Assembly (NCBI GenBank): GCA_051382295.1
Contig: JBBCAW010000110.1
Location: 1-38,775, forward strand
DNA from: Bdellovibrionota bacterium FG-1
Lineage (GTDB): Bacteria > Bdellovibrionota > UBA1018
Direction: 5' to 3'
DNA length: 38,775 nt
The notes under the pieces are model-generated. The model was not told where the DNA came from. It searched no databases and worked only from the letters and a program-made list of their open reading frames with translations. Position numbers and translations under genes: made by a program. Position 1 is the stretch's first letter. The number at the start of each line of letters is the position of its first letter. Below are positions 10,922 through 37,869 of this stretch, one piece after another.

Positions 10922-11637
10922 TACGCGTTGGGCTTTTGGGCAGTCGCGGGCGGATGGGGCAGTGGGTGTCACGTCTTTTGGAAACGGAGTATTCGTCTCA
11001 GGTGAAAGGGGTGGTGAGCGTCGACCAACAGTCCTCCCTCGCCCCTTTGTTGGATGTGGACGTGGTCATTGATTTTTCATCGCCTTCAGCGATGACAGCG
11101 TTGATTTCGGAATGTGCCCACCGCTGCAGTGCTGATTCGAGTCGTTCCCTTCCTGCTTTTGTGGTGGGAAGTACCGGTTGGACCGCTGAGCAGTTTGCAG
11201 CACTTGATCAATTCGCCCACCAAACACCCGTGGTAGCCTCATCTAATTTTTCGACGGGTGTTTTGGCGCTGCAAAAGTTCTTACGGCAATCAGCACCTTT
11301 GCTTCAAAAGCTTGGATACTCACCTATTTTGGTCGAAACTCATCATTGTCACAAAAAAGATGCTCCGAGCGGCACGGCTCTCGCGCTTCAAAAAGTGATT
11401 GCCCCACTGGATCCGTCTGGAGTTCAGACTCATAGTATTCGCGCGGGTGAGGTGATTGGGGATCACGAAGTGACTTTTTATGGGCCCGCGGACCATTTGG
11501 TGATCGGCCATTATGCGCAAGACCGTTCAATTTTTGCCCGGGGCGCGATTGATGTGGCTCTTTGGCTGGTGGGTCGGCGGGGCAAAGCTACCCACGGCTT
11601 GATCAGCGCCGAACAGTATTTTGATGAGTTGCCATAA
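10918..11637 (+). CDS. dapB: 4-hydroxy-tetrahydrodipicolinate reductase
   Basis: GRMG, VIDFS, GSTG, SNFS.G, ETHHCHKKDAPSGTA. GTG start overlaps the dapA stop. Confidence 0.93.
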   Translation: MIRVGLLGSRGRMGQWVSRLLETEYSSQVKGVVSVDQQSSLAPLLDVDVVIDFSSPSAMTALISECAHRCSADSSRSLPAFVVGSTGWTAEQFAALDQFAHQTPVVASSNFSTGVLALQKFLRQSAPLLQKLGYSPILVETHHCHKKDAPSGTALALQKVIAPLDPSGVQTHSIRAGEVIGDHEVTFYGPADHLVIGHYAQDRSIFARGAIDVALWLVGRRGKATHGLISAEQYFDELP

Positions 11638-11725
11638 AATGTTGGGGAAATTTCGAGTGGATCGTTATAAATATAAGTGCAATGCGACAGTTGAGTGCAA
11701 AGCACCAGAAGGGAAAAACTGAGCA

Positions 11726-12496
11726 ATGAATATCTACGTTTGCATCAAGCAGGTTCCTGACACCGAGACTAAGATTAAACTCAATGCGGATAATAGCTGG
11801 ATTGACACCGCGGGCATCAAATGGATTATGTCATCCTTTGATGAAGTCGCGGTCGAAGAAGCGCTTCGCCTGAGAGAAAAAAATGCCGGAAGCACCGTGA
11901 CCATTCTTTCTGCTGGACCGGCACGGGTGGTCGAAGCCATTCGTACCGCTCTCGCCATGGGCGCTGATAACGGCATTCATATCGAAATTCCAGAAACCGC
12001 GGATAATAATCTTGCGGCGAAAGCTTTGGGCGCGGCCCTTAAAAAAGAAGCGAAGATCGATGTGGTTTTTACCGGAAAAGAAGCGGTTGATGATGGTGCG
12101 GCTCAGACCAGCCAGTTGATTGCTGAATATGCCGGAATTCCTCATGTGACGGTTGCGACCGCTATTGAGTACGGCGCGACTGTCAAGGTTAAGCGAGAAA
12201 TTGAAGGGGGGGCCTATGAAATGTTTGAAGCCCCGATGCCTCTTTTGATTGCTGCGCAAAAGGGCTTGAATGAGCCTCGATATGCGAGTCTTCCGAACAT
12301 CATGAAAGCCAAGAAAAAAGAGATTAAAGCTCTTAAAATGGCTGATCTGGGGGTTTCGGAAGCGGATCAAAAAATTCGTTATAAAAACTTCCAAATGCCT
12401 GCTCCGAAGCAGGCCGGCAAAAAGATTGCTGGCGATCCAGCCGCTCAAGCGAAAGAGTTGGTTCGTCTCCTTCATGAAGAAGCAAAGGTGGTGTGA
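11726..12496 (+). CDS. etfB: Electron transfer flavoprotein beta subunit
   Basis: VCIKQVPDTE, AVEEALRL, ALAMGAD, NEPRYASLPNIMKAKKK. Confidence 0.95.
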   Translation: MNIYVCIKQVPDTETKIKLNADNSWIDTAGIKWIMSSFDEVAVEEALRLREKNAGSTVTILSAGPARVVEAIRTALAMGADNGIHIEIPETADNNLAAKALGAALKKEAKIDVVFTGKEAVDDGAAQTSQLIAEYAGIPHVTVATAIEYGATVKVKREIEGGAYEMFEAPMPLLIAAQKGLNEPRYASLPNIMKAKKKEIKALKMADLGVSEADQKIRYKNFQMPAPKQAGKKIAGDPAAQAKELVRLLHEEAKVV

Positions 12497-21305: not shown

Positions 21306-21380
21306 TGGGGCGTCGGCAAGTGGTAAGCTAGCGGATTTTGATTCCGCCATTCGAAGGTTCGAATCCTTCCGCCCCAGCCA
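21306..21380 (+). tRNA. tRNA-Gln (anticodon TTG), CCA encoded
   Basis: Acceptor TGGGGCG/CGCCCCA+GCCA. D-loop AAGTGGTAA. Anticodon stem GCGGA/TCCGC with TTG at 21338-40. T arm GAAGG-TTCGAAT-CCTTC. Confidence 0.96.
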
Positions 21381-23118
21381 ATTTTTCATCAAAGCCAACT
21401 TTTTCCGCTGGAATCAAATCAAGCGACGAGTTGGACTTCAAAACAAACCGTAACTCCCGCTTCCCATCCTTCCCCATCTCACCCACCACAATCCCATCAA
21501 ACAAACTCCGATAAGCTTTTTTCAGGGCCACTGGGTCCTGCTCCTGAATCAAATCCATGATCTTCCGGGCGTTGTCTGCCAGATCGCGCCACTTGAAATC
21601 ATCCGTCCCTACTTCTGACTTCTTTTTGTCTAATAGAGTCACAGCCGCCTCCAGGGTCTTGATCCGTTCCCGGATCCTTACCCCGGTGGCCTTGTACTCG
21701 CTCCGGTAGAGTTCGATCTCTTCCGCCGAAGCATCCTTGAGCAAGAAGTCGAGCTTCCGATCAGCAACCCGGCCTTCACCCCTCACCAACTCGATCTCTT
21801 GGAGTCGCTTCAACCTCTCGGCCTCAAGCAACGTCCCGGCATCCACCAGTTGCGAAGCCCTCTTCTGGATGGCCTCCCGGAGCCTGGGCGAGTTCTCAAG
21901 AACTTGCGCCACGGTCTGCCTGGCCTCGGCTTCGACCAAGTCCGCAGGAATACGGATGTCATTCTTTGCGTTCCGGTAATAGTTGTTCCTGTGGTTGGCT
22001 TCCTTGCCTCCATTGCCCCAGGCACCTGAACCAACGAACGTGGAGCCATCCAAATACTTCAAGAGCCCCTGAAGCAGATAGATCCGGGACAGCCTTGTGT
22101 TCTTTTCTTTGTTTCCCGCGATCTTCTTGATCGTTCGTTGGACGCTTTGCCATAACTCCAGGTCAATAACGCATCCATGAGAAAGATCCACGACCCTGTG
22201 TTGCTCGTAAGGCATAAGACGGTCTTGCCTCTTGTCTTTGAACTTTGCATTTATTTCCCACTTTCCGATGTACTTCGGATTGCCGAGCAATGTCCGAAGG
22301 GCCGCACAGGTAAATGGCTGCCCGTCCTTGTTCTTTAAACCCAGGCGATCACATTCCTCTCGCAGCCTTTGGTAGGATTCATATTTCAGAAATGTTCTCA
22401 TGATCCACTCGACGGCCTTTAGCTCATCAATATTAGGTTGGTAAAAGCCAACCTTCGCTTCGCCATTTTTTACTAGTTGGTCCAATCCAAAGAGTTTATG
22501 GGTGGCATTGAACTTTCCAGAGTTAATCATTGCAGAAAAAACGCTCTCCTTTAGTCGCTTCGAGTTGACTCTGGATTCATATTCCGCGAAAGCACTCAAA
22601 ATATCCAACTGGACCAGATGTGATGGATCGTTGGGGTTGAATGGAAACCCCCGAATTACAATCTCACAATCATGATCGATGCAAAGTTTGAAGAACCCCT
22701 TCCATATCAGGGTTTCTCGCGCAATACGTGTAAGTTCCTTAACGATAACAAACCTTCTTCGGCCCTGCTTGATGTCTCGCTGAAGGCGTTGAAACTCTGG
22801 TCGGTTATCATGAGTCCCGGTTATGCCCGGCTCAATGTAGACATCGACGATTCGGTAATTGATCTTGTTCGCGGTTGACCGCGCAATCGCCTCTGCAAAG
22901 AGAATATGGATCTGCTGTTCGAGTGAACCCTTTTCAACCGAGACTTGCTCTAGGTCCGAAAGTCGGATGTAAGCAGCGCCATCGATTGTTTCCCAGTCAG
23001 GGTTGACCGGCTTCCACTTCCGAATGTAGTCTCTCGAAATTGCTTTGCAGTCGGAAATGATCCGTTCAATGTTTGCCCTCTGCTCAGCTCGACTCAGGTC
23101 CGCTACTTTCTTCTCCAT
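21328..23118 (-). CDS. Large serine recombinase (integrase)
   Basis: YIRLS catalytic motif, 'YIEPGITG...RPEFQRL', 'KELTRIAR', 'AFAEYES..S.R', recombinase domain (LGNPKYIG), degenerate Zn-ribbon (YLLQGLL) and coiled coil. Confidence 0.9.
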   Translation of the reverse strand: MEKKVADLSRAEQRANIERIISDCKAISRDYIRKWKPVNPDWETIDGAAYIRLSDLEQVSVEKGSLEQQIHILFAEAIARSTANKINYRIVDVYIEPGITGTHDNRPEFQRLQRDIKQGRRRFVIVKELTRIARETLIWKGFFKLCIDHDCEIVIRGFPFNPNDPSHLVQLDILSAFAEYESRVNSKRLKESVFSAMINSGKFNATHKLFGLDQLVKNGEAKVGFYQPNIDELKAVEWIMRTFLKYESYQRLREECDRLGLKNKDGQPFTCAALRTLLGNPKYIGKWEINAKFKDKRQDRLMPYEQHRVVDLSHGCVIDLELWQSVQRTIKKIAGNKEKNTRLSRIYLLQGLLKYLDGSTFVGSGAWGNGGKEANHRNNYYRNAKNDIRIPADLVEAEARQTVAQVLENSPRLREAIQKRASQLVDAGTLLEAERLKRLQEIELVRGEGRVADRKLDFLLKDASAEEIELYRSEYKATGVRIRERIKTLEAAVTLLDKKKSEVGTDDFKWRDLADNARKIMDLIQEQDPVALKKAYRSLFDGIVVGEMGKDGKRELRFVLKSNSSLDLIPAEKVGFDEKLAGAEGFEPSNGGIKIR

Positions 23119-23755: not shown

Positions 23756-24874
23756 ATGGAAACTTCTGGCCAGGTTGGAGACCTATTTTTGGCGCTTCAT
23801 CGACTAACGAGTCGCGGGGTCCAGTCCCCTTATGGGTCATTGCGTTATTTTGCCGGTAGGCAGGCGTTAAAAGATGGGACGAACTCGAAACACCTAGCTA
23901 GGAGCAAGATCGAGGATGCTGCTTTGGAAAATTTTGTAAAGATTGTCGCCGAGCGATGGAGGAACAGAAGGATCATAAAAGACCCAGGAAAACGGGCGGG
24001 TAAAACAAAGCTCACCAAAAAAGACATGGAGCCCGAAGGTCTTGAAGACGCTCTTCCGGGAATCTGCGTAAGGCTAAGGGACCTTCAAAATCGGCTTAAC
24101 GAACAAAATCCGGTACGGCCCCTTTTTGTCGGTCCGAATGGCTCAGCGATGGATCGTCTTCGATACATGGCTCCAGAACCTGGAATTGTAATTTTTTATC
24201 TGCTCGCTCTAAGTTGTGTTGAATACGACATTGACGGAATAATCACCGCCCTAAAGTTGGTTTCAAAAAGTGTGAAATCGAACGCGAGAGGGCAACTTGA
24301 TTTTGAGCGTCATTTTTGCCCTTTATATAAATGGTTGGATGCCATGAGTGATTCCACGACGTTTCGTTTGGGTCGTTTCAATAAATCAGGAGAGAGAGAA
24401 GACCCCGCCCTTGCCTTTAGAGTTTTCATTCAGGCCATGACTGGCACAGAACGACGGCGCAGATCAGTGAAGGCAAGGCGGTCACGCAAAAAGGAACGAA
24501 CAGCGAACTGCACTGAGCATTCATGGATAGCGGATCAAATTCCTGAAGTGCTTTCCAAAGCAAAACTGGGGCAGTCGCGCACTGACTTATACCGATCTTG
24601 GTCAATCAAGTTGATGCAGGATCTGCTAATTGAGGCCGGAGAAACAGAGGAGACTGCTACGGAGGAACTCACCTGCCTGTTCAGTGACCTTAAAGGAAAA
24701 ACTATTCGATTCAACGGAGTTGTTAAGCCACAAGACCCAATTCATAGAGTAGCTCTTCCTGATCCAGAGTACGCACTGAATCGGCTTCGGCGACTTCATA
24801 CTCTTGCTTGTTATAGGGAATATATTACTCCGCCAGTCGTCCCGAAGAAAACTAAACGACTCGTTTCAGGCTAG
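23756..24874 (+). CDS. Hypothetical protein (basic, 372 aa)
   Basis: Long ORF with no recognisable family motif. Confidence 0.6.
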   Translation: METSGQVGDLFLALHRLTSRGVQSPYGSLRYFAGRQALKDGTNSKHLARSKIEDAALENFVKIVAERWRNRRIIKDPGKRAGKTKLTKKDMEPEGLEDALPGICVRLRDLQNRLNEQNPVRPLFVGPNGSAMDRLRYMAPEPGIVIFYLLALSCVEYDIDGIITALKLVSKSVKSNARGQLDFERHFCPLYKWLDAMSDSTTFRLGRFNKSGEREDPALAFRVFIQAMTGTERRRRSVKARRSRKKERTANCTEHSWIADQIPEVLSKAKLGQSRTDLYRSWSIKLMQDLLIEAGETEETATEELTCLFSDLKGKTIRFNGVVKPQDPIHRVALPDPEYALNRLRRLHTLACYREYITPPVVPKKTKRLVSG

Positions 24875-24917
24875 AAGTATTCCTGCCGTAAGGTTCCTCG
24901 CAGAAAGCTGAGGAATT

Positions 24918-25193
24918 ATGAAACCAAATGAAAAGCTATGGCTTGCAATTGAGTCAGTTGGACTCAAAAAACAGAAAGTCGCCCAAGAACTTGGGGTATC
25001 CCCTAAGACAGTATCTCATTTTATTCACGGCATCGCCCAGCCGACTCAAGACCAAAAGTGGATTCCGTCCAGGCTTTTGCGGGTAGCCGCGAACGAGCTT
25101 TTTTCAGATTGGACCGAAGCCCCTTTGGGCGTCGAAACTGCTTCACTTAGTGGGTCAGGACTCCGTCGTGGCCATTGCGGTGAAGAGTTGTAG
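24918..25193 (+). CDS. Cro/XRE-type helix-turn-helix protein
   Basis: GLKKQKVAQELGVSPKTVSHFIHG...P. SD GAGG upstream. Confidence 0.75.
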   Translation: MKPNEKLWLAIESVGLKKQKVAQELGVSPKTVSHFIHGIAQPTQDQKWIPSRLLRVAANELFSDWTEAPLGVETASLSGSGLRRGHCGEEL

Positions 25194-25288
25194 GCTCGCT
25201 CCACGGTGAGGCAGCTTTTTCAACGAGACGAGGCCGCTTGCTACGCCCTCGTCTCAAAATTCATTCAACTATCCAACATGAAAGTTAA

Positions 25289-26620
25289 GTGACTATGCAA
25301 GAATATAAACATAGACCGACTTTAATTAAAAGTGGGAACGATGGTCTCCATACCTTTGGATGTAATCTTTCTGTAAATTTCCCACACACAACACCACCCC
25401 CACTCACCTGGGATACCCATCACTCCGTGGATGTGTCCCCGTCTGCCGTCTTCGCTTCCATGCCTGAAGGGCAGCAGCCGGAGCGTAGCGACGGAAGTGT
25501 GTGTGTGCGGAGCGGTAGCGGAGCACCTAGACTCTGCCACCCGGCCCTGGATCATGTCACGATCGAGGTTCACTATCGCCTCCAGTATTCAAATCCGAAT
25601 CCACAGACGCGAACTGCCGCATATTCGGAACGGGAGTTAGCTCGAACAAAAGAAAATATAAAGAAGATGTTTCCGCGCCTGATTCGGGAAAGTGAGTCAA
25701 ACCTCCGCAAGCGATATCCAAAGGAAGGAACCCCCATTACTGAGGGGCTACTTGTTTATCCTTCTAGCCCGAATTCGATGTTCGTTAAACATGTCATCAA
25801 GATTTCAGCACTCAAGTCTTGGAGACGGAAATCTTCAAAAGAGTACAAGGAAGTTGATCTCCAAGGTGAGGATAACTTCATTCCGTTTGAGACGCAGTCC
25901 GAACGCATCATGGGGGATCAGTCTTCAGAGCTGGGGGCGATTATCGACTCGATGAAGGCCGCCTTGCTTGGGCATTTCCAGGATAGGATTGCGCTAACGA
26001 GAAAGCGCCTGATGAGATACGAGATTGCCTTCGATTTTCCGTATGAAGGTCAGGAGCAGCTTCGCGCCATTCAGGAGGTCATTCGTTCTCATGCTATCAA
26101 AGGTAGCTTCAGAGAGACGCAAGACAACGGGTTTAAGGGTTTTACCGGAACTCTTGGCGATGGGGAGGAGATTACTATTTATACCAAAGGCAAAGACAGG
26201 CTTAGATTGGAGCTGAGGGTGCGCAGCTCCAGTACCAATAAGAAGAACAAGGTCAGAACTGATTTTACTGAACGTAGTCTGCTCTCGGTTATCAAGGACG
26301 TAGTGGAAGAACGCCAAGGCTTAATTTCTCGGTGCATCAGCGTGAGGCCGGATTCCAAAATACCTACCAGCAATACGGTGTCATTCGAGGCCTTGATGAA
26401 TGCGTTGAGATCTATTGTCAGTACAAAATGTGCGGTCGATGTAACAGAGTTGTATCTGGCCACTGGCCAGGTTCACTTCCGTGACAAAACGCCTATGCGA
26501 AAGTATGCGTCTGAGAAAGCGAAGTTGGATCGGGCTGGAGTTTTGATTCGCGTGGCTCGCGGCCAATACGGACTGGATCTCGAAAAGCTTTTTAATCAAA
26601 CGAAAGGACTCCTGACATGA
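25289..26620 (+). CDS. Putative Rep_trans-like rolling-circle replication initiator/relaxase (start uncertain)
   Basis: LDHVTI, RYEIAFDF (cf. RxDxAxD), IYTKG (cf. YxK catalytic Tyr) and RLELR (cf. RxE) occur in the Rep_trans order. Confidence 0.55.
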   Translation: MTMQEYKHRPTLIKSGNDGLHTFGCNLSVNFPHTTPPPLTWDTHHSVDVSPSAVFASMPEGQQPERSDGSVCVRSGSGAPRLCHPALDHVTIEVHYRLQYSNPNPQTRTAAYSERELARTKENIKKMFPRLIRESESNLRKRYPKEGTPITEGLLVYPSSPNSMFVKHVIKISALKSWRRKSSKEYKEVDLQGEDNFIPFETQSERIMGDQSSELGAIIDSMKAALLGHFQDRIALTRKRLMRYEIAFDFPYEGQEQLRAIQEVIRSHAIKGSFRETQDNGFKGFTGTLGDGEEITIYTKGKDRLRLELRVRSSSTNKKNKVRTDFTERSLLSVIKDVVEERQGLISRCISVRPDSKIPTSNTVSFEALMNALRSIVSTKCAVDVTELYLATGQVHFRDKTPMRKYASEKAKLDRAGVLIRVARGQYGLDLEKLFNQTKGLLT

Positions 26621-27246
26621 ACCCAAAAGATAGAGCGGAAGTTGAAGCACTCTACCAACATTTTTGCCTCGAAACTCAGCGTCTGGGGTTTCCGGGGAGC
26701 TTTGCGACAAGGCCACGGTCCTATCAGTACGAGCAGAGTCGGGACATAATTCGGCATCTGGGATTGGACCGGGCCAAAGCGGTCATCACCTTTGCGATTC
26801 AGCACTGGGTCGAATATCGAGACGAAAGTCGTTTTTGGGAGCGTCTTCATGTCTACCCAAATTTCAATCAAATGCTGCCGGAGTGGCATTACTCTAAATG
26901 GTTGAGTAATATGATGGAAGAGGACTTGCTTGAATCCGAGTTTGGAAAAAATCGGGATGAGACCACCTATGGCCTATCCAAAGAAGCTTTGCACCAAGCT
27001 GTTTTGTTATTTTATGTCTCCACGAATGAGGAGTTGGTGGCCTCTGGGCTAGAGCCCTTTCCGACGCTAATTGATAGGAAGGACTACAGGATCATAGAGG
27101 CCGCTCTGCTCGGACATGGAGTCGAGGCCGCGAAAAAGAAAATGAAGGGTCATGTCGCGGTGCTTGGGCGGGATAAGCACAATCCAAAAAGTGAGTTCCG
27201 TAACTCACCCTGCCAGTTTGAATTTCTTTTGTTGGGAATGGATTAG
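26617..27246 (+). CDS. Hypothetical protein, translationally coupled to the Rep-like gene
   Basis: ATGA overlap at 26617-26620. Confidence 0.6.
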   Translation: MNPKDRAEVEALYQHFCLETQRLGFPGSFATRPRSYQYEQSRDIIRHLGLDRAKAVITFAIQHWVEYRDESRFWERLHVYPNFNQMLPEWHYSKWLSNMMEEDLLESEFGKNRDETTYGLSKEALHQAVLLFYVSTNEELVASGLEPFPTLIDRKDYRIIEAALLGHGVEAAKKKMKGHVAVLGRDKHNPKSEFRNSPCQFEFLLLGMD

Positions 27247-27453
27247 GCAGCAGTGATGGGGTGAAAAGAGGGAGCCAATATCGACGGACTTATTCGCAGG
27301 GGTTACCGCACAAATGCGGTAAGGTCGTTGATCGATATTGGCTTCTCATATATGGTAATGGACGTAGTTCTCGTTTTTTTGTTGACCCTCGTTGAGAAAT
27401 AACCGGAAGGCAGAAGGGAGCCTTCCTTTGTTGAATTTTTAAGAGGGGGCAGC

Positions 27454-28692
27454 ATGCCTACTGTTTCTACCAGTCAGTTTATTTTGCGTGAGATCGATAT
27501 CCCAAGTTCAGTGGATCTCCAGATTGATCCACTTGCGGTGCGTTATCCTTTTTCGGAAGAACGGGTAAAGGCCCTGGCTGACGATATCCGAAAGAATGGC
27601 CTGATCCAGCCGGTTGTTGTACGCGAGGGAAAGGTCATCGCAGGCAGGCATCGGCTGAAGGCATGTTTGTTGGCCGGGGTGCCGCCGAGGTTCCTGGAGC
27701 TTGTTGGTGACTGCTCCGTTGAAGCCTGGGTGCTGGGTGACAATTCGGTGCGGCGGCATGAATCGGCATCCCAAAGGGCTTGTGGTGCGGTTTCCTGGCT
27801 CCCATACTTTGAGAACGAAGCAAGGAACCGGCGAGAGGCCGGGAAGCCTGTCCTTGGAACTCTGGGAGGCGCAGCGGCCTTAAAAGCAGGTAATGTTTTC
27901 GGGGTAGGTCAAAGGTATGTTGAGGCTGCCAAACAGCTCCATGATGCAGACCAAGAGGCCTTCCTAAAAGTGTTTTCTGGTGAGCTGACACTTTCGGCGG
28001 CGGGAGCGAGGCTGAAGAAGAGGAAGGGATGTACGAAGTTGGCCGGGGACTGGAAGTCGGCTTCATTCGAGTACATTGATCGCGAACCGGCAGAGTTTTT
28101 GAAAACGGGTGAGCAAAAGTTCGACTTGTTGATTGCTCGCCTGAGCACCGAACTTCTTGCGAAGTACCCATTGGCCGATTGGGTTGGACACCTTGCTCAG
28201 GTAGCCCCGACTGGACACGCGATCTTGGTAATGGATTTTTCAGTGGCCTGCCAAGTGAGGTTTGAGCTGGATCGTCTCGGAATGCTGGCAGGAGTTCAAT
28301 TTCTGATTAGTTTTAACCCGGTGATCGATCAGTCTAATGGCGTCGTTCGTGCTGAGAAGCCAGGGGACAAGATCTTTTACCGTCGTGATCATGTTGAGAA
28401 CTTTTTTGTCCTCTGCCACATTCGTTTAAGCAAAGACTCGAAGTTTCTTCGGTTCACGAAGACCTCTGAACTTGGGGCCGTTATTGATTTGGGCCACGGA
28501 GCTGGATCAGTCTCAATGCGTCTCGCCTCAGTTTGGATTGAGCGAACTTGCGCATCCACAGTCTTGGACTTGTTTCCCGACTCCGAGGCATCGTTCGCCC
28601 GGTCGGCTGCGGTTCTGGGGCGGAAGGGATACGCCCTTGGCCGAGAGCCGGAGGCCAGTCTGATGGATCGCACTCGGACTTTGGCGGGATAG
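27454..28692 (+). CDS. ParB N-terminal domain fused to a degenerate N6/N4 DNA methyltransferase-like domain
   Basis: LADDIRKNGLIQPVVV...IAGRHRLKAC (ParB/Srx) and N..RRH..SQRA. C-terminal FDLLIA and VLDLFPDS...SAAVLGR resemble MTase motifs. Confidence 0.65.
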   Translation: MPTVSTSQFILREIDIPSSVDLQIDPLAVRYPFSEERVKALADDIRKNGLIQPVVVREGKVIAGRHRLKACLLAGVPPRFLELVGDCSVEAWVLGDNSVRRHESASQRACGAVSWLPYFENEARNRREAGKPVLGTLGGAAALKAGNVFGVGQRYVEAAKQLHDADQEAFLKVFSGELTLSAAGARLKKRKGCTKLAGDWKSASFEYIDREPAEFLKTGEQKFDLLIARLSTELLAKYPLADWVGHLAQVAPTGHAILVMDFSVACQVRFELDRLGMLAGVQFLISFNPVIDQSNGVVRAEKPGDKIFYRRDHVENFFVLCHIRLSKDSKFLRFTKTSELGAVIDLGHGAGSVSMRLASVWIERTCASTVLDLFPDSEASFARSAAVLGRKGYALGREPEASLMDRTRTLAG

Positions 28693-28755
28693 ATCGGCAT
28701 CTTACGATAGGTGTTTGGCTGATTCCCGGAGTGATGCCAGCACTCTTGGATCAGT

Positions 28756-29550
28756 TTGACCAGGTATGAGGAACTAATCCCAACTTCCGACGGATTTTTG
28801 AGGTGTGTTATGGCGCTGTCACAAATGAATGCCTGGGAACAAGAGGTCGGGGACGCACTCAAGCGAGCGGAGCAAATCCGGGCACCTGCCTCGGTTCAAA
28901 ATTACGGGGTCGAGAAGATCAAAAGGCTCCGTTGTTTCGAGTGGGTCAAGTCCGAAATTTTGGCAGGAACTCCGGCCCGGCAGGTTGCGGCGGAGATTCA
29001 GGCCAAGGGGGAATTGATCGATTTGAAGCCTGAGACCGTTAGGCGTTATCTGGAGTCATATCGGTCCAGCTTGTCGCCTCTACAGAGGATCGCCAACCTC
29101 GGCAGTCCTGATCAACTTGCCGATCTTCGGGGTCGTGTGGTCAAAACTCTCGATGTGATCGGGGAGCTTGAATCTCTTTTCCGCATGATGAAGGGACGAC
29201 TTGAAAAGGTTGTGAGCACGGAGGAGTCCTTGGGGTTTCTCTTGGAGGGGGCTCACAAGGAATTTCAGACTGCGCTGGACATTTTGTCACGGATTCACGA
29301 ACTGAAGGGGCGGCCAGAAGTGTGGCAGAAGGAAGAGGAGCCTTCGCCGCCTTTGGTGGAACAGATTGACTGGAGCCTGGTTTACGACGCGCCGAATGTA
29401 AATGCGGTGTTAAAAAGTGCGGACTCGCGTGCCCGGATCTTACGGTTCGTCGAGACTGTCTGTGGTGTTTTTGGTCCAATGACAGCGGAAAAGCAGGAGC
29501 GGATTCTTGAAGTTGCCCGGCGCAGGACTGCCTCACCGCAGCAAAAATAG
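28756..29550 (+). CDS. Hypothetical helical protein with an HTH-like segment (start uncertain)
   Basis: ILAGTPARQVAAEIQAKG...KPETVRRYL followed by helical/coiled segments. Confidence 0.5.
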   Translation: MTRYEELIPTSDGFLRCVMALSQMNAWEQEVGDALKRAEQIRAPASVQNYGVEKIKRLRCFEWVKSEILAGTPARQVAAEIQAKGELIDLKPETVRRYLESYRSSLSPLQRIANLGSPDQLADLRGRVVKTLDVIGELESLFRMMKGRLEKVVSTEESLGFLLEGAHKEFQTALDILSRIHELKGRPEVWQKEEEPSPPLVEQIDWSLVYDAPNVNAVLKSADSRARILRFVETVCGVFGPMTAEKQERILEVARRRTASPQQK

Positions 29551-29846: not shown

Positions 29847-30677
29847 TCACGGCCAACTGCTGCTAGCTCTGATTTTCTGGCAATAGCTTTTCTTTGTATT
29901 TGCGCGATTGAAGTGGGGTTGCACGTTTGGCGAGTGGAAATTACCGCGTGGCTTTCCGAAATCCCGTGCGATTTGTTTAACCTCAACCATCAGCTGTTCG
30001 TAGTCGGCCATGCAGTCCTTGTATCGTGCCTCTCTTGCCTGGGACTGGTCGACGCTTCGATGATGCAACGGTGGGGTTGGTGTTTCTGCTCTGACGACTG
30101 ACTCTGTCCTGATCATGATCGTTTGAACTTTGGCCTGTTCGATAGCAGACATCTTTGCCTCAAGTACTGCCATCTTTTGCTCGGCAGCGGCGGTGCGGCT
30201 TTCTTGCTTTCCGATTATCATATAAACGCGGTCCTTGATGCTGTTCCAGACCGAATCCTGGGGAGTGAGTCCCTCAAGTTGCGAATAAATATCCTGATTT
30301 CGAACGAGTTCTGGGTTTGATAGCGACCTTCGGCTTTCGCCCTTTGCTTTGATTGCCTCTTCGCAGGCGGCAGTGTTAATACCGGCACGAGCGTAGGCTC
30401 TGAAGTTTTTGTCGGAAAGTTGTTCCAGATACCGATCCCAAATGACGATATCTCTGTGGGCAAGTGAACACTCTGAAATCACGTTCTTCACTGCCATCGA
30501 CTCCGCTTTGAACCGGGCCACTTCAGGGGTTGGGCCGAGGCCCTGTCCTGCGTGCATGATATCCCCACCGATAACGTGCCTTGATTGGCGATCGAGCCAT
30601 TCAGGGCGTGGTTCAGCAGCCATACACAGGGTGATAGTTAAAATGAAATACAGGATTGAGAGTGCGGTGACCTTCAT
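29847..30677 (-). CDS. Secreted protein (LPP20/FlgT-N-like G.G.T...A...A...A motif, then coiled coil and Cys pairs)
   Basis: Signal peptide MKVTALSILYFILTITLCMAA and GQGLGPTPEVARFKAESMA. Confidence 0.6.
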   Translation of the reverse strand: MKVTALSILYFILTITLCMAAEPRPEWLDRQSRHVIGGDIMHAGQGLGPTPEVARFKAESMAVKNVISECSLAHRDIVIWDRYLEQLSDKNFRAYARAGINTAACEEAIKAKGESRRSLSNPELVRNQDIYSQLEGLTPQDSVWNSIKDRVYMIIGKQESRTAAAEQKMAVLEAKMSAIEQAKVQTIMIRTESVVRAETPTPPLHHRSVDQSQAREARYKDCMADYEQLMVEVKQIARDFGKPRGNFHSPNVQPHFNRANTKKSYCQKIRASSSWP

Positions 30678-30755
30678 CGTTTTTTCCCGTTTTTTGAAGC
30701 ATCAAGAACAAATCTCCGAGCGAAGTCATTTTTTAGCCCTCTGTCCGTTGGGCCA

Positions 30756-31220
30756 TCAGGCAACATTAGTAGTGCCAGTAACATACAGTAATTCCAATCT
30801 GGATTTGAAGACCAATACTCCGAACACTCTTTCATCGGAGTTCGCGAGGAGATCTCTCGCCCTTAACATGAGACCCTCAAGGATTTCAGTTTTGTCGAAA
30901 TGACGTAATATTTCGTCCGACAAACTCAGGGTATGGATGTCGCAACCATCAATTAGGCAGCGGCTGACTATGGCAGTCAAACCGTCACCAGCGGCCTTTC
31001 GGGTCTTAATGTGCGCCAAGAGATGCACAACGATTGCCGAGGAAATCGATGGGTCTTGATTGTCCTGCTCGTTAAATGAAATCTTCACCAACTCATCCAC
31101 TATACTTACGTTATCTGAATTCGCACAGTTTACTTCTCTTTGAACGGAGATCCCCGGCCCTAATACAGGTTTTATATTGTCAGCTTTGGTGTTTGAGTTG
31201 CCCTTGGCTTTGAGTTTCAT
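30756..31220 (-). CDS. Hypothetical protein (154 aa)
   Basis: Starts 6 nt after the stop of the ClpX-like gene. No family recognised. Confidence 0.6.
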   Translation of the reverse strand: MKLKAKGNSNTKADNIKPVLGPGISVQREVNCANSDNVSIVDELVKISFNEQDNQDPSISSAIVVHLLAHIKTRKAAGDGLTAIVSRCLIDGCDIHTLSLSDEILRHFDKTEILEGLMLRARDLLANSDERVFGVLVFKSRLELLYVTGTTNVA

Positions 31221-31226
31221 TCTTTA

Positions 31227-32159
31227 CTAAACTTTAGCCCCGTGACATTTTTTTACGATCTCTTTCGTGATAGTCACGACCCCTTTAGGGCAGCCAAAAA
31301 TAATAAATTCTTTAATCTCTGACATTATCTTAGGTACGATCCTCATTCCATACTTTGGATTCTGTGCTGCCATTGCTAACTCTAAAAAGGCGGTGTTGTC
31401 GAATTCAACCTCAAACCCCTGTTCCTTCATCTCATCAAAAAATGTCACGATCATCTCGTCCTGGGCAACGCGCCTAACGACATCTTCAGTACTTGGGAGG
31501 TCAGTGGATGCGAATTTCTGTATCCGCCCAAGAAGCTCATTCTTAAAGCCATACTTTATGAGATCATCTGAATTCAATTTTGGCTGCGCCTGCTTCATTT
31601 CGTCGGTATAAGAGAACGCTCCGGCAAAAATCCACAGCGAGTTTCGAGTGTCAATGGCACCCTCTTGGATTCCTTGAATCAGCGTGAGCAGCTCCGATTG
31701 CAGTGAGTGGCTCTTATGAATGTCCCCACCGTTTGCAAATTCTGAGAGTTTATCAAACTCATCCAAAATGACGATGCAACCTCTCGAAGCCATCATATTC
31801 CCGCTAAAAAATCCAGTAAGGGAGTCTCGCAATGTATTTCCAACGTAGCCAGATGGTACAAGGCCAGAAGCATCGATCAACAGATAGGGGAGTTCAAAAT
31901 CAGGAACACATTGTTGGAGTAAATAAGTTTTACCAGAGCCACTCGGACCAGACACCAATAGATGCATTCGCCTGGTTCGGTTATTGATGAACTCTGACAA
32001 TGACAGCGCTAAAGACTGCTTGTATTTGGTGTTACCGATAATAGCTCTGTCTAACCGATCAAAAATAGACTGAGCGTTCCATGCCGCCTTGGATTTTGAC
32101 TTCTCCGTCTCTACCAAGGCCATTATTTCCCTAATTTTGGCTTCATCGAACTGTGACAT
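31227..32159 (-). CDS. ClpX/HslU-clade AAA+ ATPase, minimal (no Zn-binding domain, no IGF loop)
   Basis: IIGN, GPSGSGKT, DAS...GYVG, VILDEFDK, LQSELL.LIQG, IDT.N.LWIFAGAF, DLIKYGF..ELLGRI, YGMR. Confidence 0.85.
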   Translation of the reverse strand: MSQFDEAKIREIMALVETEKSKSKAAWNAQSIFDRLDRAIIGNTKYKQSLALSLSEFINNRTRRMHLLVSGPSGSGKTYLLQQCVPDFELPYLLIDASGLVPSGYVGNTLRDSLTGFFSGNMMASRGCIVILDEFDKLSEFANGGDIHKSHSLQSELLTLIQGIQEGAIDTRNSLWIFAGAFSYTDEMKQAQPKLNSDDLIKYGFKNELLGRIQKFASTDLPSTEDVVRRVAQDEMIVTFFDEMKEQGFEVEFDNTAFLELAMAAQNPKYGMRIVPKIMSEIKEFIIFGCPKGVVTITKEIVKKCHGAKV

Positions 32160-32161
32160 GT

Positions 32162-34330
32162 CTAACCCGCCTTCTTGATGCCTGTGATATTTAGGAGTTC
32201 CTCAACGTCAGCTCTTGAAACCCTTTCTGCATGTTCCGTGATTATGTGTCTCGTCTTATGGCGTCTGAAGAAAGTTTGATCGATTTTATCGAAGGCTCTG
32301 ACGAATCCGCCTGTTTCCATACAATAATGACAAAGTAGTGCAAGCGCATCGTCATCGTATTCTAAACCCCGCCTTGTGCAAACATGACCCACGGCTTTCA
32401 TTAAAGTTTCCAACGTCCAACCTGGGAATCGCCAGTCCGAGAAGTCTATACTTCCCCCTAATGCATTTCCAAAAATAGCTGTCAGACCATTAGTCAGCTG
32501 AAGTGCCGAATTATCCAAAGACGGTACCGTTCTCAAGAAAACAAAATATACAGGCTTTAAGGAATAGTTTGTTTTCAGCGCGTGGCGAAAGTCCATTAGT
32601 TCAGGCGACGGCCCGTTTGCCGCGTCTGTATCAAAAAACTCGTCTGGCAAATCAAATAGAACGAGCAGTCGTTTCTCTACAGTATTGGCTACTTGCAAGG
32701 AGCTGCAATCCGAGATTTTCACATACTTAACGCCTAAGTCGGGCAGGTTGAGGCCAGGAATTTCGTCAGTCAATCCGGAAATCCGTTGCGCAACCTCAGT
32801 TTTCCCGGTCCCTTGGGTTCCCCAGAAACATCGCATTCTACTTTTTGAGCTTAATAGAAAATCCTCTAGGTCCACCGAGAAGTGTTTTATGATTGAATCT
32901 AGTCCAACCATTCCCGTCATACTTTTTGTCAATTGTATTCTGATCTCAACAGCCGTCAACTTGACTGGAGGTGAAGTATTTTCCAATTCTTCCGACTTTG
33001 AAGTATCTTTCAGTAGTGCTCTAATTCTGTTATCAAATGTCTTGTCACAGGCCGCCTCACCAGCGTTATCTGTAATTCGTTTATCAGCGCCGTGGTGGAG
33101 CAACAGTGTCACTGCGAGTTCATGGTCATTTGCTGCCGCAATCATAAGTGCCGTTTGAGATTCCCTATTTTGTTTATCTAGGGTGGCCCCGGCTCCAATC
33201 AGCAACTCACATACATTAACAAAGCCGCCCTCCGCAGCGGCCATCAAGGGAGTATTGGATTGGTTACTTGAATTTACGTTGGCTCCGATTTTTATTAGCA
33301 GTTCAACGATGCCGTGGTAGCCACCAAGCGATGCGAGATATATGGGGGAATTTCCCTCGTCATTTTTAATTTCTGTATCGGGTTTTCTCTTTCCTATCTC
33401 CTCGGCGATTTTCAGAAAACCGTGCTCAGCGGCTATGGCTAATGACGTATTTCCGAACATGTCTTTTTCGTTAATATTCTTCATGCGAGCGATATTTTGT
33501 TTTACAAACTCCAAGTCGTCGGCCTCAATTTTTGACATAAATTCTTCAATATCCAATGCACCACTGGTGGTGTCATCTTTTTCTTGGCAAGTTCTATTTT
33601 CGTTTTGCACGCCATCACTGAATCCGTGCGCCTTGAAAATCTTTTTAAGAGCAGGACTTCCATCTTCAAAAATACCTGCCAAAAGACTATAACCTCTGGA
33701 GTCTTTGATGTAAGGACTAGCTCCTTTTTTTAAAAGTTGTTGCACAAGGTCGCCGTGATCGTTTTCTACGGCACAGGAGAGCGCAGTTTCTCGCTCTGCG
33801 TTTCGTTGATTGACATCAATGTCGGCGCTACTTAGCAAGAGGCTCGCGATTTCTAAATTTGATTGGTCTGCCGCCACAATTAAAGGAAAATTACCACTAT
33901 CGTTTTTGATGTTGGAGTTTGCACCGACTGCGATGAGCAGTTTAACAATCGAGCAATCTTCATTTGAGCAGGCGAAATGCAAAGCAGTGTCGCCACTTGT
34001 GTTTTTCAGATCTGGTTTGGCTTTATTTGTAAGTAAAAGACTGACCACATCTACATGCGAGGCGGAGGTGGCTAACATTAGAGCTGTTTCTTGCTCCTCA
34101 CTTCGGATATTTATGTCGCCGCCGGTTGCAATGAACTCACGCACTATTTGGATGTCACCATCGGAAGCGGCCTGGAGGAAAGTATCATCGCTGACATTAC
34201 CTTTATTCTTGGCCAATGAGTTACCTCTCTTTACATTTTGCGTGAGTTCGGGGGAATCCAATATCTTCCCATATGCCGACATCTTTTGATCTACCTTCCT
34301 ATCGGAAGGGGCCCTTTTTTCTTTAATCAT
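32162..34330 (-). CDS. Ankyrin-repeat protein with C-terminal divergent AAA+ domain
   Basis: Two blocks of ankyrin repeats (TALMLA, TALHFA, TPLMAA, etc.), then MVGLDSI, Walker A GTQGTGKT and Walker-B-like LLVLFDLPDE. Confidence 0.85.
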   Translation of the reverse strand: MIKEKRAPSDRKVDQKMSAYGKILDSPELTQNVKRGNSLAKNKGNVSDDTFLQAASDGDIQIVREFIATGGDINIRSEEQETALMLATSASHVDVVSLLLTNKAKPDLKNTSGDTALHFACSNEDCSIVKLLIAVGANSNIKNDSGNFPLIVAADQSNLEIASLLLSSADIDVNQRNAERETALSCAVENDHGDLVQQLLKKGASPYIKDSRGYSLLAGIFEDGSPALKKIFKAHGFSDGVQNENRTCQEKDDTTSGALDIEEFMSKIEADDLEFVKQNIARMKNINEKDMFGNTSLAIAAEHGFLKIAEEIGKRKPDTEIKNDEGNSPIYLASLGGYHGIVELLIKIGANVNSSNQSNTPLMAAAEGGFVNVCELLIGAGATLDKQNRESQTALMIAAANDHELAVTLLLHHGADKRITDNAGEAACDKTFDNRIRALLKDTSKSEELENTSPPVKLTAVEIRIQLTKSMTGMVGLDSIIKHFSVDLEDFLLSSKSRMRCFWGTQGTGKTEVAQRISGLTDEIPGLNLPDLGVKYVKISDCSSLQVANTVEKRLLVLFDLPDEFFDTDAANGPSPELMDFRHALKTNYSLKPVYFVFLRTVPSLDNSALQLTNGLTAIFGNALGGSIDFSDWRFPGWTLETLMKAVGHVCTRRGLEYDDDALALLCHYCMETGGFVRAFDKIDQTFFRRHKTRHIITEHAERVSRADVEELLNITGIKKAG

Positions 34331-34877: not shown

Positions 34878-34907
34878 TTGACAAAACGCTACGGCAGCAT
34901 GTATACT
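34878..34907 (+). promoter_or_regulatory. Near-consensus sigma70 promoter driving the resolvase operon
   Basis: TTGACA (34878-83), 18 nt, TATACT (34902-07). Confidence 0.6.
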
Positions 34908-34958
34908 GAAATGGTCAAGTATTAAGCCCCGAATAACATGGGCTTTTTTGGAGGCGTT

Positions 34959-35300: not shown

Positions 35301-35834
35301 ATGGCGAAGCACTACCTATATACGCCGCTCCTGCCTCACGAGGAAGCTGACCAAGCGATAAGGGATATCATTGCCGTGGCGCGAGATGCACAGATAGGCT
35401 CACCGCTGGAGGTCGTGGTCTCGTCGTGGAGGACTCTCCCTCATGGGGCACTTGTCTTCTCTGACGGACTTCACCGCTTCGGTAGCGACCCACAGTCAGT
35501 CCTGCGGACACTCCTGGCGCTTATCACTAGGGACAATGGCATCCTCATTGGATCGTGCGATTTGCGCGTCTCAAGTATCCACCGAGCGGTCCTGATTGAT
35601 TTCATGCAAGCTCTCGCTGGTGTTTCCCAGATTTACAGAAAGAGCAGGATTCGTGCGGCATTTAAAAGAAGGCGGGAACAAGGATTACCATCGGGAAGAT
35701 CGGGGGTATCTGGTGAAATTCGCCAAAAGATCCTAGCTGAGTCTTCAGGTTCGGTCAGGGACACTGCGAAGCGGTTCGGTGTAAGTAAGAGCTTTGTTGG
35801 GCAACTTCGAAAAAAGAATCGTGGTGCCGCGTGA
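35301..35834 (+). CDS. Degenerate serine resolvase-like protein with C-terminal HTH
   Basis: LHRFG (cf. DRLG), ALAG...RKSRIRAAF..RREQG..SGR, HTH SVRDTAKRFGVSKSFV. No YxRxS motif. Confidence 0.65.
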   Translation: MAKHYLYTPLLPHEEADQAIRDIIAVARDAQIGSPLEVVVSSWRTLPHGALVFSDGLHRFGSDPQSVLRTLLALITRDNGILIGSCDLRVSSIHRAVLIDFMQALAGVSQIYRKSRIRAAFKRRREQGLPSGRSGVSGEIRQKILAESSGSVRDTAKRFGVSKSFVGQLRKKNRGAA

Positions 35835-36445
35835 AAGCATTAACAGTGGCAACCTACAGCCGATGCAGTACTGCTGACAAAGGGCAAAACCCAGAAGTTC
35901 AGGTTCATGAACTGCGTAGGTATTGCGAAGCTAGGGGATGGCTGATTACCGAAGAGATTATTGATCACGGCTATTCAGGCGGCAGCGGAGCGGATCAACG
36001 CCCAGGTCTTCGGAAACTTATGGCTCTCGTTCGGGCACGGCAGGTCGATGGTGTAGTCGTTGTCAAGATGGATAGATTCTTCAGGTCGTTAAAAAATCTA
36101 GTAACAACTTTGGACGAGTTTCAAAGTTTAGGCGTCACTTTCACTGCGACCCAAGACCAGATTGATATGAGTTCTGCGAGTGGTCGCCTCATGCTTCATC
36201 TTATCGGGGCATTTAGCGAGTTTGAAAAATCGCTACTGCGCGAAAGAACAATGCTGGGTCTTGACCACGCTCGTCGCAGCGGCAAAACGCTTGGTCGTCC
36301 CAAGCGGCGGGATGACAAGGCGATTGCAGATTTGAGATCCCAAGGTCTCTCTATCCGCCAGATAGCCCTTGCCCTTGGAGTGTCAACGACGGCAGTCCAG
36401 CGCGGACTGTCTGTGACCAAATCGGGTCTCCGGAGGGCATCCTAA
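35831..36445 (+). CDS. Serine resolvase/invertase with C-terminal HTH
   Basis: YSRCST, DHGYSG, RPGL, MDRFFRS, FSEFEKSLLRERT..GL..AR..GKTLGRP, HTH. GTGA overlap with the upstream gene. Confidence 0.92.
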   Translation: MKALTVATYSRCSTADKGQNPEVQVHELRRYCEARGWLITEEIIDHGYSGGSGADQRPGLRKLMALVRARQVDGVVVVKMDRFFRSLKNLVTTLDEFQSLGVTFTATQDQIDMSSASGRLMLHLIGAFSEFEKSLLRERTMLGLDHARRSGKTLGRPKRRDDKAIADLRSQGLSIRQIALALGVSTTAVQRGLSVTKSGLRRAS

Positions 36446-36763
36446 GTGCGTAAAACTAAACAGGCGAGAAAAGCAAAACCTGGCATGACGAAACCGTTCG
36501 TTTTCGGGACAGAAGGCGTCCGCCAGTTCGACAGGCCTCTTCGCTACCTCCGGGAGGCAGCGCTGAAAGTGCGTGGACTCGCTTACCTCATTGAGAATCA
36601 CCACGATGAGCCAGGCACCCCTTTGGACTTCGAAGATATTAATTCTGGGATCGGGCTGATTCTAACCCAATGCTCGCGGTCAATCCTTCGTCATACACGA
36701 GGGATCGAGGAGCGATCTCTCACAACGATGGTTAAGCGTTCCTCAAAGGAGATGAAACCATGA
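36446..36763 (+). CDS. Hypothetical protein
   Basis: ORF begins immediately after the resolvase stop. Confidence 0.45.
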   Translation: MRKTKQARKAKPGMTKPFVFGTEGVRQFDRPLRYLREAALKVRGLAYLIENHHDEPGTPLDFEDINSGIGLILTQCSRSILRHTRGIEERSLTTMVKRSSKEMKP

Positions 36764-36992: not shown

Positions 36993-37197
36993 TTCCTCTC
37001 ATCGTGTGACAATGAGTAATTCATACTCTTCCAATAAGAAGGGAATCGTTAAGAAGGTCAAGTTTAGGAAGGAAATGCCGAAAAATGAGATAGTCCCATG
37101 TTTCGACATTAGTGCGCCAAAAATTCAACCGGCACCGTCAGGTGTGCCTTAAAAGAAAAAGGGGCGGCATAGGAAATACCCATGTTTGGAGGCAGTT

Positions 37198-37869
37198 ATG
37201 AATATTAAAGATGTCAAAAATGTAGGTTCCACTCAGTCTATAAAATGGATGCTTTTTTTTGCTACATTTTGTGCTTGCTCAAGTGCACCAGTTGCCAGAA
37301 CCAAATACTCCGACCATGCCCATCGCGTTTTTCTCTCCCCAAAAGGGATTTCTGGAGAAGACTACGTCGCCATTCAGGCGTCGTTATCAGAAGTTAACCG
37401 ATTCTTCATCGTGGACCGCTCAAGTGGTTTCAATGCTGTTCGTAGAGAGCAAGCAATGATTCATCGTGACGACATCGAGGCTTTTAACGATGCGGACAAG
37501 TATTCAAGGCTGGGGGCGCTTTATTCGGTGGGGGCAGTGATTGTTGCTAACGCGCATTGTACCCGAATTGAGGGCTTCCTTGGTCCGTCGCTAATGTGTC
37601 GGCAATACATCAGTGCAGTCGATGCTTCCACTGGCTTGGTAATCGTTGCTGTTTCTGGGACTTCTGAGGCGAGAATGGTCAACGGTATGCCATCATGGGA
37701 TGACACCGTGGACAAGTTTTGCAAGGCCTTTCCAACGACTTGGGAGTCAAATCAGAACACCGCTGAATTGGAGACTTACCGAAAACTAGCTGGTGAAGAG
37801 GCCCGAAAACAAAAACTAAAACCGCACAAAGAACAACCAACGAAGGACGACCCCTTTGGTGAAGACTAA
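37198..37869 (+). CDS. CsgG/HfaB-like lipoprotein
   Basis: SD GGAGG, lipobox-like FCACSS, RFFIVDRS...VRREQ and VDASTG.VI motifs. Confidence 0.55.
   Translation: MNIKDVKNVGSTQSIKWMLFFATFCACSSAPVARTKYSDHAHRVFLSPKGISGEDYVAIQASLSEVNRFFIVDRSSGFNAVRREQAMIHRDDIEAFNDADKYSRLGALYSVGAVIVANAHCTRIEGFLGPSLMCRQYISAVDASTGLVIVAVSGTSEARMVNGMPSWDDTVDKFCKAFPTTWESNQNTAELETYRKLAGEEARKQKLKPHKEQPTKDDPFGED

Follow-up and report, generated by a model that had tools for sequence, protein, structure and literature searches.

Gene content of the locus

The window analyzed in this study is the whole 38,775-nucleotide (nt) stretch of contig JBBCAW010000110.1 of Bdellovibrionota bacterium FG-1 (GenBank assembly GCA_051382295.1), and our subject is a cluster of four genes on its minus strand between positions 29847 and 34330. 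Gene 1 (32162..34330; 722 amino acids, aa) joins ankyrin repeats to an AAA+ domain with a ClpX/HslU fold and is the putative specificity subunit, gene 2 (31227..32159; 310 aa) encodes a minimal ClpX-derived ATPase, gene 3 (30756..31220; 154 aa) encodes a small protein composed of an N-terminal tail and a compact domain (residues 57-154), and gene 4 (29847..30677; 276 aa) encodes an exported protein. The gaps between consecutive genes are 2, 6, and 78 nt, in agreement with the co-oriented arrangement given in the original prediction, which was made from the DNA alone. That prediction treated the four genes as a single system; the conserved unit is three genes, not four, and gene 4 adjoins this core but lies outside it. 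It also described the DNA as AT-rich, which holds for genes 1 to 3, whose G+C content of 0.444 falls at the 0.2th percentile of 4006 same-size windows drawn from the genome (mean, 0.513), but not for gene 4 (0.511, close to the genome mean).

Gene 2, a minimal ClpX-derived ATPase

The top NCBIfam and PDB matches of gene 2 are ClpX (nearest solved relative, E value 1.6e-29; PDB entries named, 9ndj, 8e91, and 3hws), confirming the predicted ClpX-clade identity, while its score against the ClpX family model is 78.6 bits relative to a cut-off of 359. Among the best 120 of 233 matches examined in a homologue search, gene 2 belongs to a family of 86 clusters, mostly 301 to 316 aa long and 41 to 64% identical to it (self excluded; E < 1e-51), which is separated by a gap from true ClpX proteins beginning at an E value of 1e-21. 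Scans of sequence collections with the gene 2 alignment, which relied on generic Walker motifs, returned only ordinary or phage ClpX-type loci among the matches listed (21 to 38% identity over long matches), and these loci were reused as controls.

The catalytic elements of gene 2 comprise Walker A K77, the pore-1 motif GYVG at 104-107, Walker B D133-E134, the arginine finger R212, and the sensor-2 residue R273. These catalytic residues are invariant across the family: the Walker A lysine is kept in 85/85 members covering the site, the Walker B Asp-Glu pair in 86/86, the arginine finger in 85/85 members covering the site, and the sensor-2 arginine in 84/84 members covering the site, with an aromatic residue at the pore-1 position in 76 of the 86. 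By its sequence, the gene 2 protein thus has all the parts needed for ATP hydrolysis and for gripping a polypeptide through the pore-1 tyrosine. In ClpX, a zinc finger and the RKH loop pick substrates and the IGF loop docks ClpP. Alignment to solved ClpX (9ndj and 8e91) shows that both the RKH and IGF segments are deleted in gene 2, that the pore-2 sequence differs from that of ClpX, and, together with Pfam, that no N-terminal C4 zinc finger is present. No IGF-type motif was found in any of the 86 family members, the corresponding spacer measuring 19 to 20 residues in the 80 members matched. Because the IGF segment is missing while all catalytic motifs are kept, gene 2 looks like an active unfoldase of ClpX descent, for which docking to ClpP is unlikely. 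A complete ClpX, with the zinc-binding domain, is encoded elsewhere in the host genome, on contig C12.

Phylogenetic analysis, rooted with the second domains of ClpA/ClpB as the outgroup and leaving out the unpublished genome G667 (locus L001), placed the gene 2 family in a single clade (support, 99) within the ClpX radiation. Next to this clade fall some phage ClpX-like proteins of stripped form, a placement that long branches may have produced. The branch of gene 2 itself is of normal length (0.32). Stripped ClpX-like genes beside the gene 2 clade occur on the viral contigs L040, L046, and L047, without genes 1 and 3. One family-related protein, P0040, has ankyrins fused straight onto a gene 2-type ATPase, and because of this fusion we regard the recognition and motor functions as tied together.

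Gene 1, an ankyrin protein with a ClpX/HslU-fold domain

Gene 1 carries two ankyrin blocks, as had been read from the sequence, with four Pfam stretches and a best Ank_2 E value of 4e-53. Block 1 (33686..34183) covers approximately residues 50-215 (Ank_2/Ank stretch 49-214) and block 2 (33011..33553) approximately residues 260-440 (stretches 264-410 and 342-442), the limits of both being approximate; no membrane helix is present. The AAA+ domain lies at 32162..32962. The last 266 residues of the protein have no Pfam, PHROG, or NCBIfam match of their own, and their AAA+ nature is supported by profile and fold comparison. The domain is modeled with a mean predicted local distance difference test (pLDDT) score of 91.5, and its fold matches are ClpX (Z 15.6; root mean square deviation, 3.4; 237 residues aligned), HslU (Z 15.4), and Skd3 (Z 12.9). 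Its tree placement relative to the second nucleotide-binding domain of ClpB and Skd3 involves a long branch, and the fold search favors ClpX/HslU. As to a possible common origin of genes 1 and 2 by duplication, a profile-profile comparison (hhalign) of the two shows colinearity only, with a probability of 99.7%, a value inflated by the ankyrin columns, and a PDB sequence search with the partner alignment A6 was likewise swamped by ankyrins. The predicted AAA+ module is therefore present by profile and fold, although it lacks a library match of its own and is catalytically degenerate in this copy: Walker A is intact (G504-T511) and the sensor-2 arginine is kept, but at Walker B (D560-L561) the sequence reads FDLPDE in place of IDEADK, with the catalytic glutamate missing, and S627 replaces the arginine finger.

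A profile search with this domain found 51 proteins at E <= 1e-30 (50%-identity representatives); partner candidates, as we call gene 1-type proteins, number 59, and in 55 of them the domain exceeds 200 residues. Among these 55, intact copies number 50 for Walker A, 42 for Walker B, 43 for the arginine finger, and 44 for sensor 2, and 39 members keep the full set. The loss of catalytic motifs thus recurs in 16/55 family members, and for this reason it suggests a tolerated state. No partner domain (0/55) has a pore-1 motif, and the segment preceding Walker B is 22 residues long in 43/55 partners versus 31 to 32 in gene 2, measured from slightly different anchors.

The N-terminal parts of the partners are highly variable. 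Ankyrin matches were found in 25 of the 54 partner proteins scanned with Pfam, while single partners carry a protein kinase, a biotin/lipoyl domain, DUF4236, or a beta-helix at the N terminus, and the 44 N termini of at least 100 residues sort into 14 groups. A membrane-like segment is present in 28/53 partner N termini. An unnamed N-terminal domain is common to eight partner ATPases (P0122, P0125, P0126, and P0145-P0149), and stretches resembling it occur in P0212 and P0217, which have no ATPase match. The distant partner P0202 has a sub-threshold nSTAND3 match.

Gene 3, a small protein without a fold match

Sixteen gene 3 sequences were aligned, revealing six invariant residues (C88, H96, I104, H107, A121, and V137). 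The structural model consists of a low-confidence N-terminal segment of 56 residues and a compact domain in which a helix followed by three strands occurs twice; residues 81-154 are modeled at pLDDT above 90. None of the 16 members has a Pfam family. No fold match exceeded Z 4.1 among 48,161 chains, and neither the PDB library nor the viral one gave a match at E 0.001, a result that falls short of proving a new fold. The invariant cysteine and two histidines may form a metal or catalytic site. An Atlas lead (0.78) pointed to a possible TRADD-N identity, but no TRADD-N chain is among the fold matches and there is no Pfam match. A complex prediction of gene 3 with both ATPase domains scored 0.00 and carries no weight either way.

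Co-occurrence and distribution of the trio

Gene 3 lies in the same operon as gene 2 in 9/9 other loci, from nine other genomes of the phylum, and a gene 1-type protein is present in 8/8 informative loci; the ninth, L079, begins inside gene 2 and is hence uninformative for gene 1. The gene 3 copies of L083-L085, which stood outside the profile, scored 66 to 70 bits, and the profile found no gene 3 in the 65 control loci from the ClpX-motif scans. The gaps within the trio elsewhere range from -14 to +14 nt, and two gene orders occur, with gene 1 preceding gene 2 in 4/8 loci. The co-occurrence of homologues on which the original prediction had been staked is therefore observed for genes 1 to 3 and fails for gene 4, which has no homologue in any of the nine other trio loci. 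Beyond these genomes, 10/15 partner clusters checked match a gene 2 cluster in the exact size of the longest contig, which points indirectly to linkage. Two different partners have one such contig size in common. The identity matrices of genes 1 to 3 co-vary as well (Mantel rho 0.82, 0.71, and 0.59 over 8 loci), and a value of 0.91 was obtained over 16 pairs, half of which are linked only by equal contig size. Considered as a whole, the trio is very probably one functional unit.

The distribution of the gene 2 family is patchy. It was found in 1/116 genomes of the same order (the window's genome only), 4/401 genomes of the phylum, 6/182 genomes of another family, including 4/44 of one genus, and 9/301 genomes of the class of that other family; the samples overlap and together give the nine other genomes. 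None was found in 301 genomes around a Myxococcales genome or in 301 around a Planctomycetota genome. In the host genome, the families of the gene 1 ATPase, gene 2, and gene 3 are each represented only once. Several of the loci have insertion sequences or toxin-antitoxin-like genes nearby.

Proposed mechanism and purpose

Clp/Hsp100 unfoldases are generally known as homohexamers whose specificity is conferred by an N-domain that is fixed or by adaptor proteins encoded separately from the motor. The module described here appears to split the unfoldase job between two paralogues, a constant gripping motor and a pore-less subunit with a swapped recognition end. We propose, with the chances about evenly balanced, that genes 1 to 3 form one ClpP-independent remodeling machine built of two diverged ClpX-clade AAA+ subunits and a small partner. 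A division of labor in which gene 1 provides recognition and gene 2 the motor could, in our estimate, equally be right or wrong; the variable N termini and the split of motifs between the two proteins fit it, and they fit the sensor-plus-motor idea of the original prediction, taken without gene 4 as a core member. Under this proposal, the gene 1 protein would either enter a mixed ring with gene 2 subunits or load them, setting the target that the gene 2 protein would pull. The gene 1 protein of the window would probably bind ATP without hydrolyzing it or activating the neighboring subunit and, because the catalytic glutamate and the trans-acting arginine are missing, may act as a gate or loader that damps hydrolysis instead of a co-motor. 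Gene 3 could be a cofactor, or a substrate or effector turned on by remodeling, and the output may pass through variable neighbors such as a class III cyclase or a TIR-membrane protein. Should co-assembly prove true, the module would offer a naturally retargetable unfoldase and a simple model in which to study the gating of an AAA+ ring by subunits that are inactive or have no pore loop.

As to purpose, the likeliest one, at somewhat less than an even chance, is surveillance in biological conflict, for instance the sensing of proteins from phages or competitors within the envelope or close to it. The points counted for defense are the patchy spread, the low-G+C island here, the insertion sequences and toxin-antitoxin-like genes nearby, the swapped recognition ends, and the cyclase and TIR neighbors. 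More specifically, and more tentatively, the trio may represent a new bacterial immune or conflict system in which interchangeable receptors (ankyrin, membrane, kinase, or beta-helix types, sometimes two per locus) sit on a constant ClpX-derived motor ring, and recognition of a foreign protein leads to the remodeling or release of a small Cys-His-His effector or switch with a new fold.

Several observations weigh against this interpretation. The core contains no recognizable toxic effector, and PADLOC, applied to 67 proteins (61 open reading frames of the loci and 6 partners), gave partial generic matches only (cyclase, TIR, HNH, Fic, and AAA); these matches make no defense island, and the enrichment of defense genes anticipated for the neighborhood is not clearly seen. 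The gene 2 family was not found in searches of plasmids, phages, and IMG/VR, and the loci L071, L083, and L084 lie among ordinary genes. The co-variation of the identity matrices shows co-inheritance, not contact, since shared descent predicts it and the kin are not independent. Some copies may also be decaying: the terminal branch of the window's gene 1 is long (1.18), and the partner gene of L084 is split in two frames (10438-12364), leaving aside assembly error as a possible source.

Neighboring genes and alternative explanations

An exported or membrane-anchored gene adjoins gene 3 in 8/9 other loci and in the window, and such a neighbor is a recurring theme of the system. The slot after gene 3 is filled by one exported family, different from gene 4, in 5/9 loci, by a second exported family in 2/9, and by a TIR-membrane protein in 1/9; in 4/9 loci the first family is followed by a membrane class III cyclase. 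The first family (L083:1872-2795 and relatives in L071, L077, L084, and L085) has a conserved G-x-W-x-G motif and a conserved cysteine, with no Pfam match for the two members scanned, and the exported neighbors of the other loci are weakly linked to one another (hhalign, 19.5% and 1.2%). Membrane proteins of the RDD type are also among the neighbors. DnaJ-type CxxCxGxG-repeat proteins with C-terminal membrane helices adjoin the trio in 3/9 loci (L072:6352-8124, L073:11685-13067, and L077:7134-8999). At L078:4939-6006, a TIR domain, a membrane helix, and an exported beta-rich domain are combined in one protein that is convergent on the trio, and the same locus has a further classical AAA ATPase immediately upstream of the trio.

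These neighbors lend themselves to an explanation in terms of envelope signaling or membrane-protein quality control, in which an anchored gene 1 protein and the gene 2 protein would extract or remodel a membrane partner and in this way control the neighboring cyclase under the influence of an exported ligand-binding protein. The common exported protein, the cyclase, the RDD and DnaJ-zinc-finger membrane proteins, and the membrane-like segment of many partner N termini all speak for it. Yet the gene 1 protein of the window is without a membrane segment, and a Pfam scan found no cyclase gene nearby; the cyclase loci are interrelated, three coming from one genus, and so cannot be counted as independent; and rapid exchange of the recognition ends would be expected of a conflict system rather than of signaling with a housekeeping role. 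We consider this explanation rather unlikely, but it is the strongest of the alternatives.

A split two-ring chaperone is less probable still. Hexamers of gene 1 and of gene 2 would here be stacked like the rings of ClpA/ClpB to make an accessory disaggregase, with the ankyrins capturing substrate as in Skd3/CLPB. The 39 partners with all four catalytic motifs could make a ring of their own, the combination of ankyrins with a Clp-clade AAA+ domain is the Skd3 architecture, and gene 1 precedes gene 2 in half of the informative loci. The complete lack of the pore-1 motif in the partners stands against stacked rings, as does the flipping of the gene order; the Pfam-scanned partner hits showed no evident protein in which both ATPases are fused, longer gene 2 forms not having been searched; and stacked rings would account neither for an invariant gene 3 nor for the patchiness of the distribution.

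A four-gene system with an integral exported gene 4, occupying a variable slot filled elsewhere by unrelated exported proteins, is improbable. The protein was rightly predicted to be secreted, having a hydrophobic N-terminal segment (mean hydropathy, 2.17), and is possibly LPP20-like (a lead only, 0.77-0.82). Its orientation, its position 78 nt downstream of gene 3, and the exported protein in the same place at most loci are in favor of membership. Its relatives, found in 8/115 other genomes of the order, nevertheless lie in every case in genomes without gene 2 and the trio and are accompanied by none of the other island genes, most having lipoprotein-like N termini as judged by eye; it has no homologue at the other trio loci and differs in G+C content from genes 1 to 3, and comparison with the exported family of the other loci gave no similarity (hhalign probability, 0.05%). 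Gene 4 is thus not core. The remaining explanation, that the module is real elsewhere while the window copy is decaying, the catalytic residues of gene 1 having been lost by relaxed selection and the trio being nonfunctional, could draw on the lost Walker B glutamate and arginine finger, the long terminal branch, and the split gene of L084, but it is the least probable of all in view of three intact, tightly packed frames, a fully conserved gene 2 on a normal branch, the retention of C88, H96, and H107 in gene 3, the confidently modeled gene 1 domain, and the recurrence of motif loss among its relatives.

Mobile-element setting of the locus

Positions 1-21200 of the window hold housekeeping genes. 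Beyond them follow a tRNA-Gln(TTG) gene (21306..21380, plus strand), which is the probable left boundary of an integrated element, a large serine recombinase (21328..23118, minus strand), which probably acts as integrase for the element that bears the module, an endonuclease VII-like gene, helix-turn-helix (HTH) genes, a ParB-domain gene, and a resolvase. Because the tRNA-Gln, serine recombinase, resolvase, and ParB-domain genes precede or surround it, the cluster of the trio and gene 4 appears to lie inside an integrated element that would run past the contig end; the island location originally predicted is thus supported. A right attachment site, sought in the assembly as a second copy of the tRNA end, was not found. 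The minus-strand frame of the recombinase terminates within the tRNA-Gln gene, giving a 53-nt antisense overlap.

The region 23756-29550 contains plus-strand genes mostly without a family (372, 443, 209, and 264 aa), an HTH gene, and a 412-aa ParB-domain protein, and this run is possibly the replication or partition module of the element. On the other side of the cluster, a family-less 124-aa gene precedes gene 1 and is divergent from an operon at 34938, upstream of which a sigma-70 site near consensus (11/12) lies at 34878-34907 on the plus strand; the promoter scan overall was at chance (7 found versus 7.9 expected). An invertase-like/resolvase pair with a 105-aa gene occupies 35301-36763. 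Close relatives of this resolvase at 52 to 55% identity occur on contigs C29, C47, and C81, with the one on C47 again accompanied by the 105-aa gene, suggesting a family of related elements in the genome. At 37186-37869, a 227-aa protein with a lipoprotein-like N terminus (by eye) and no family match has a paralogue, 33% identical, on contig C115.

Comparison with known systems

The closest relative of the motor is ClpX of the ClpXP system. Gene 2 shares with it the ClpX-clade core, Walker A and B, the arginine finger, sensor 2, and GYVG, and differs in lacking the C4 zinc-binding domain, the RKH loop, and the IGF/LGF loop and in its altered pore 2; in place of clpP, the trio encodes a pore-less paralogue and a small protein. 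Gene 1 resembles the mitochondrial disaggregase Skd3/CLPB in layout, with two ankyrin blocks preceding one Clp-clade AAA+ domain, as described for Skd3 (bioRxiv 10.1101/2022.02.17.480866). Unlike Skd3, gene 1 has no pore loop in its chain, its window copy has neither the Walker B glutamate nor the arginine finger, the motor is a separate subunit, and its fold is nearer to ClpX/HslU than to Skd3. The likeness in layout is probably convergent. Skd3 was the only ankyrin-Clp-AAA+ protein known to its authors in 2022, according to that report; the present module supplies many bacterial ankyrin-AAA+ fusions.

The MoxR-vWA ternary conflict systems, including the iSTAND and VMAP types (PMC7159879), likewise combine a constant AAA+ chaperone and a constant co-component with a variable third part, which is sometimes an inactive NTPase, and have cyclase or TIR domains nearby. 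In contrast, both ATPases of the trio are of the ClpX clade, with no MoxR, vWA, VMAP, or STAND domain, and no MoxR or vWA match was found in the window genes or the scanned neighbors. Torsin with LAP1/LULL1 and other heteromeric AAA+ pairs such as Pex1/6 offer a further parallel, an AAA+ ATPase whose partner also has the AAA+ fold and may be degenerate as well as anchored in the membrane (PMC4358337 and PMC4490564). LAP1 keeps the arginine and lacks nucleotide-binding motifs, the reverse of the window's gene 1, and these systems are eukaryotic, with kinship not established.

Gene 2 has a weak partial match to IetA of the IetAS system (E value, 1.6e-7), but this covers only the generic P-loop core (27.9 bits versus 510), and no S8 protease match was found among the adjacent genes. 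STAND systems resemble the locus in having a repeat domain joined to an NTPase on an island, and the original prediction had drawn this analogy to repeat-sensor STAND/NLR NTPases. The analogy to STAND, Avs, or NLR-like proteins is not supported: gene 1 has no STAND match, its domain has the ClpX/HslU fold, and its repeats are N-terminal and not C-terminal. Assignments of the trio to ClpXP, MoxR-vWA, STAND/Avs, or IetAS were accordingly rejected, one or more defining features of each being missing.

In line with the original prediction, searches of PADLOC, NCBIfam, and the literature yielded no system that matches the trio, subscription journals and supplements being outside the search, so that a listing in a supplementary table is possible. 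Judged from its sequences, the trio is a real, conserved three-gene system for which no description was found, and its function as given here is a proposal. Its ATPase parts come from a known clade, and the novelty is that of the gene system as a whole.

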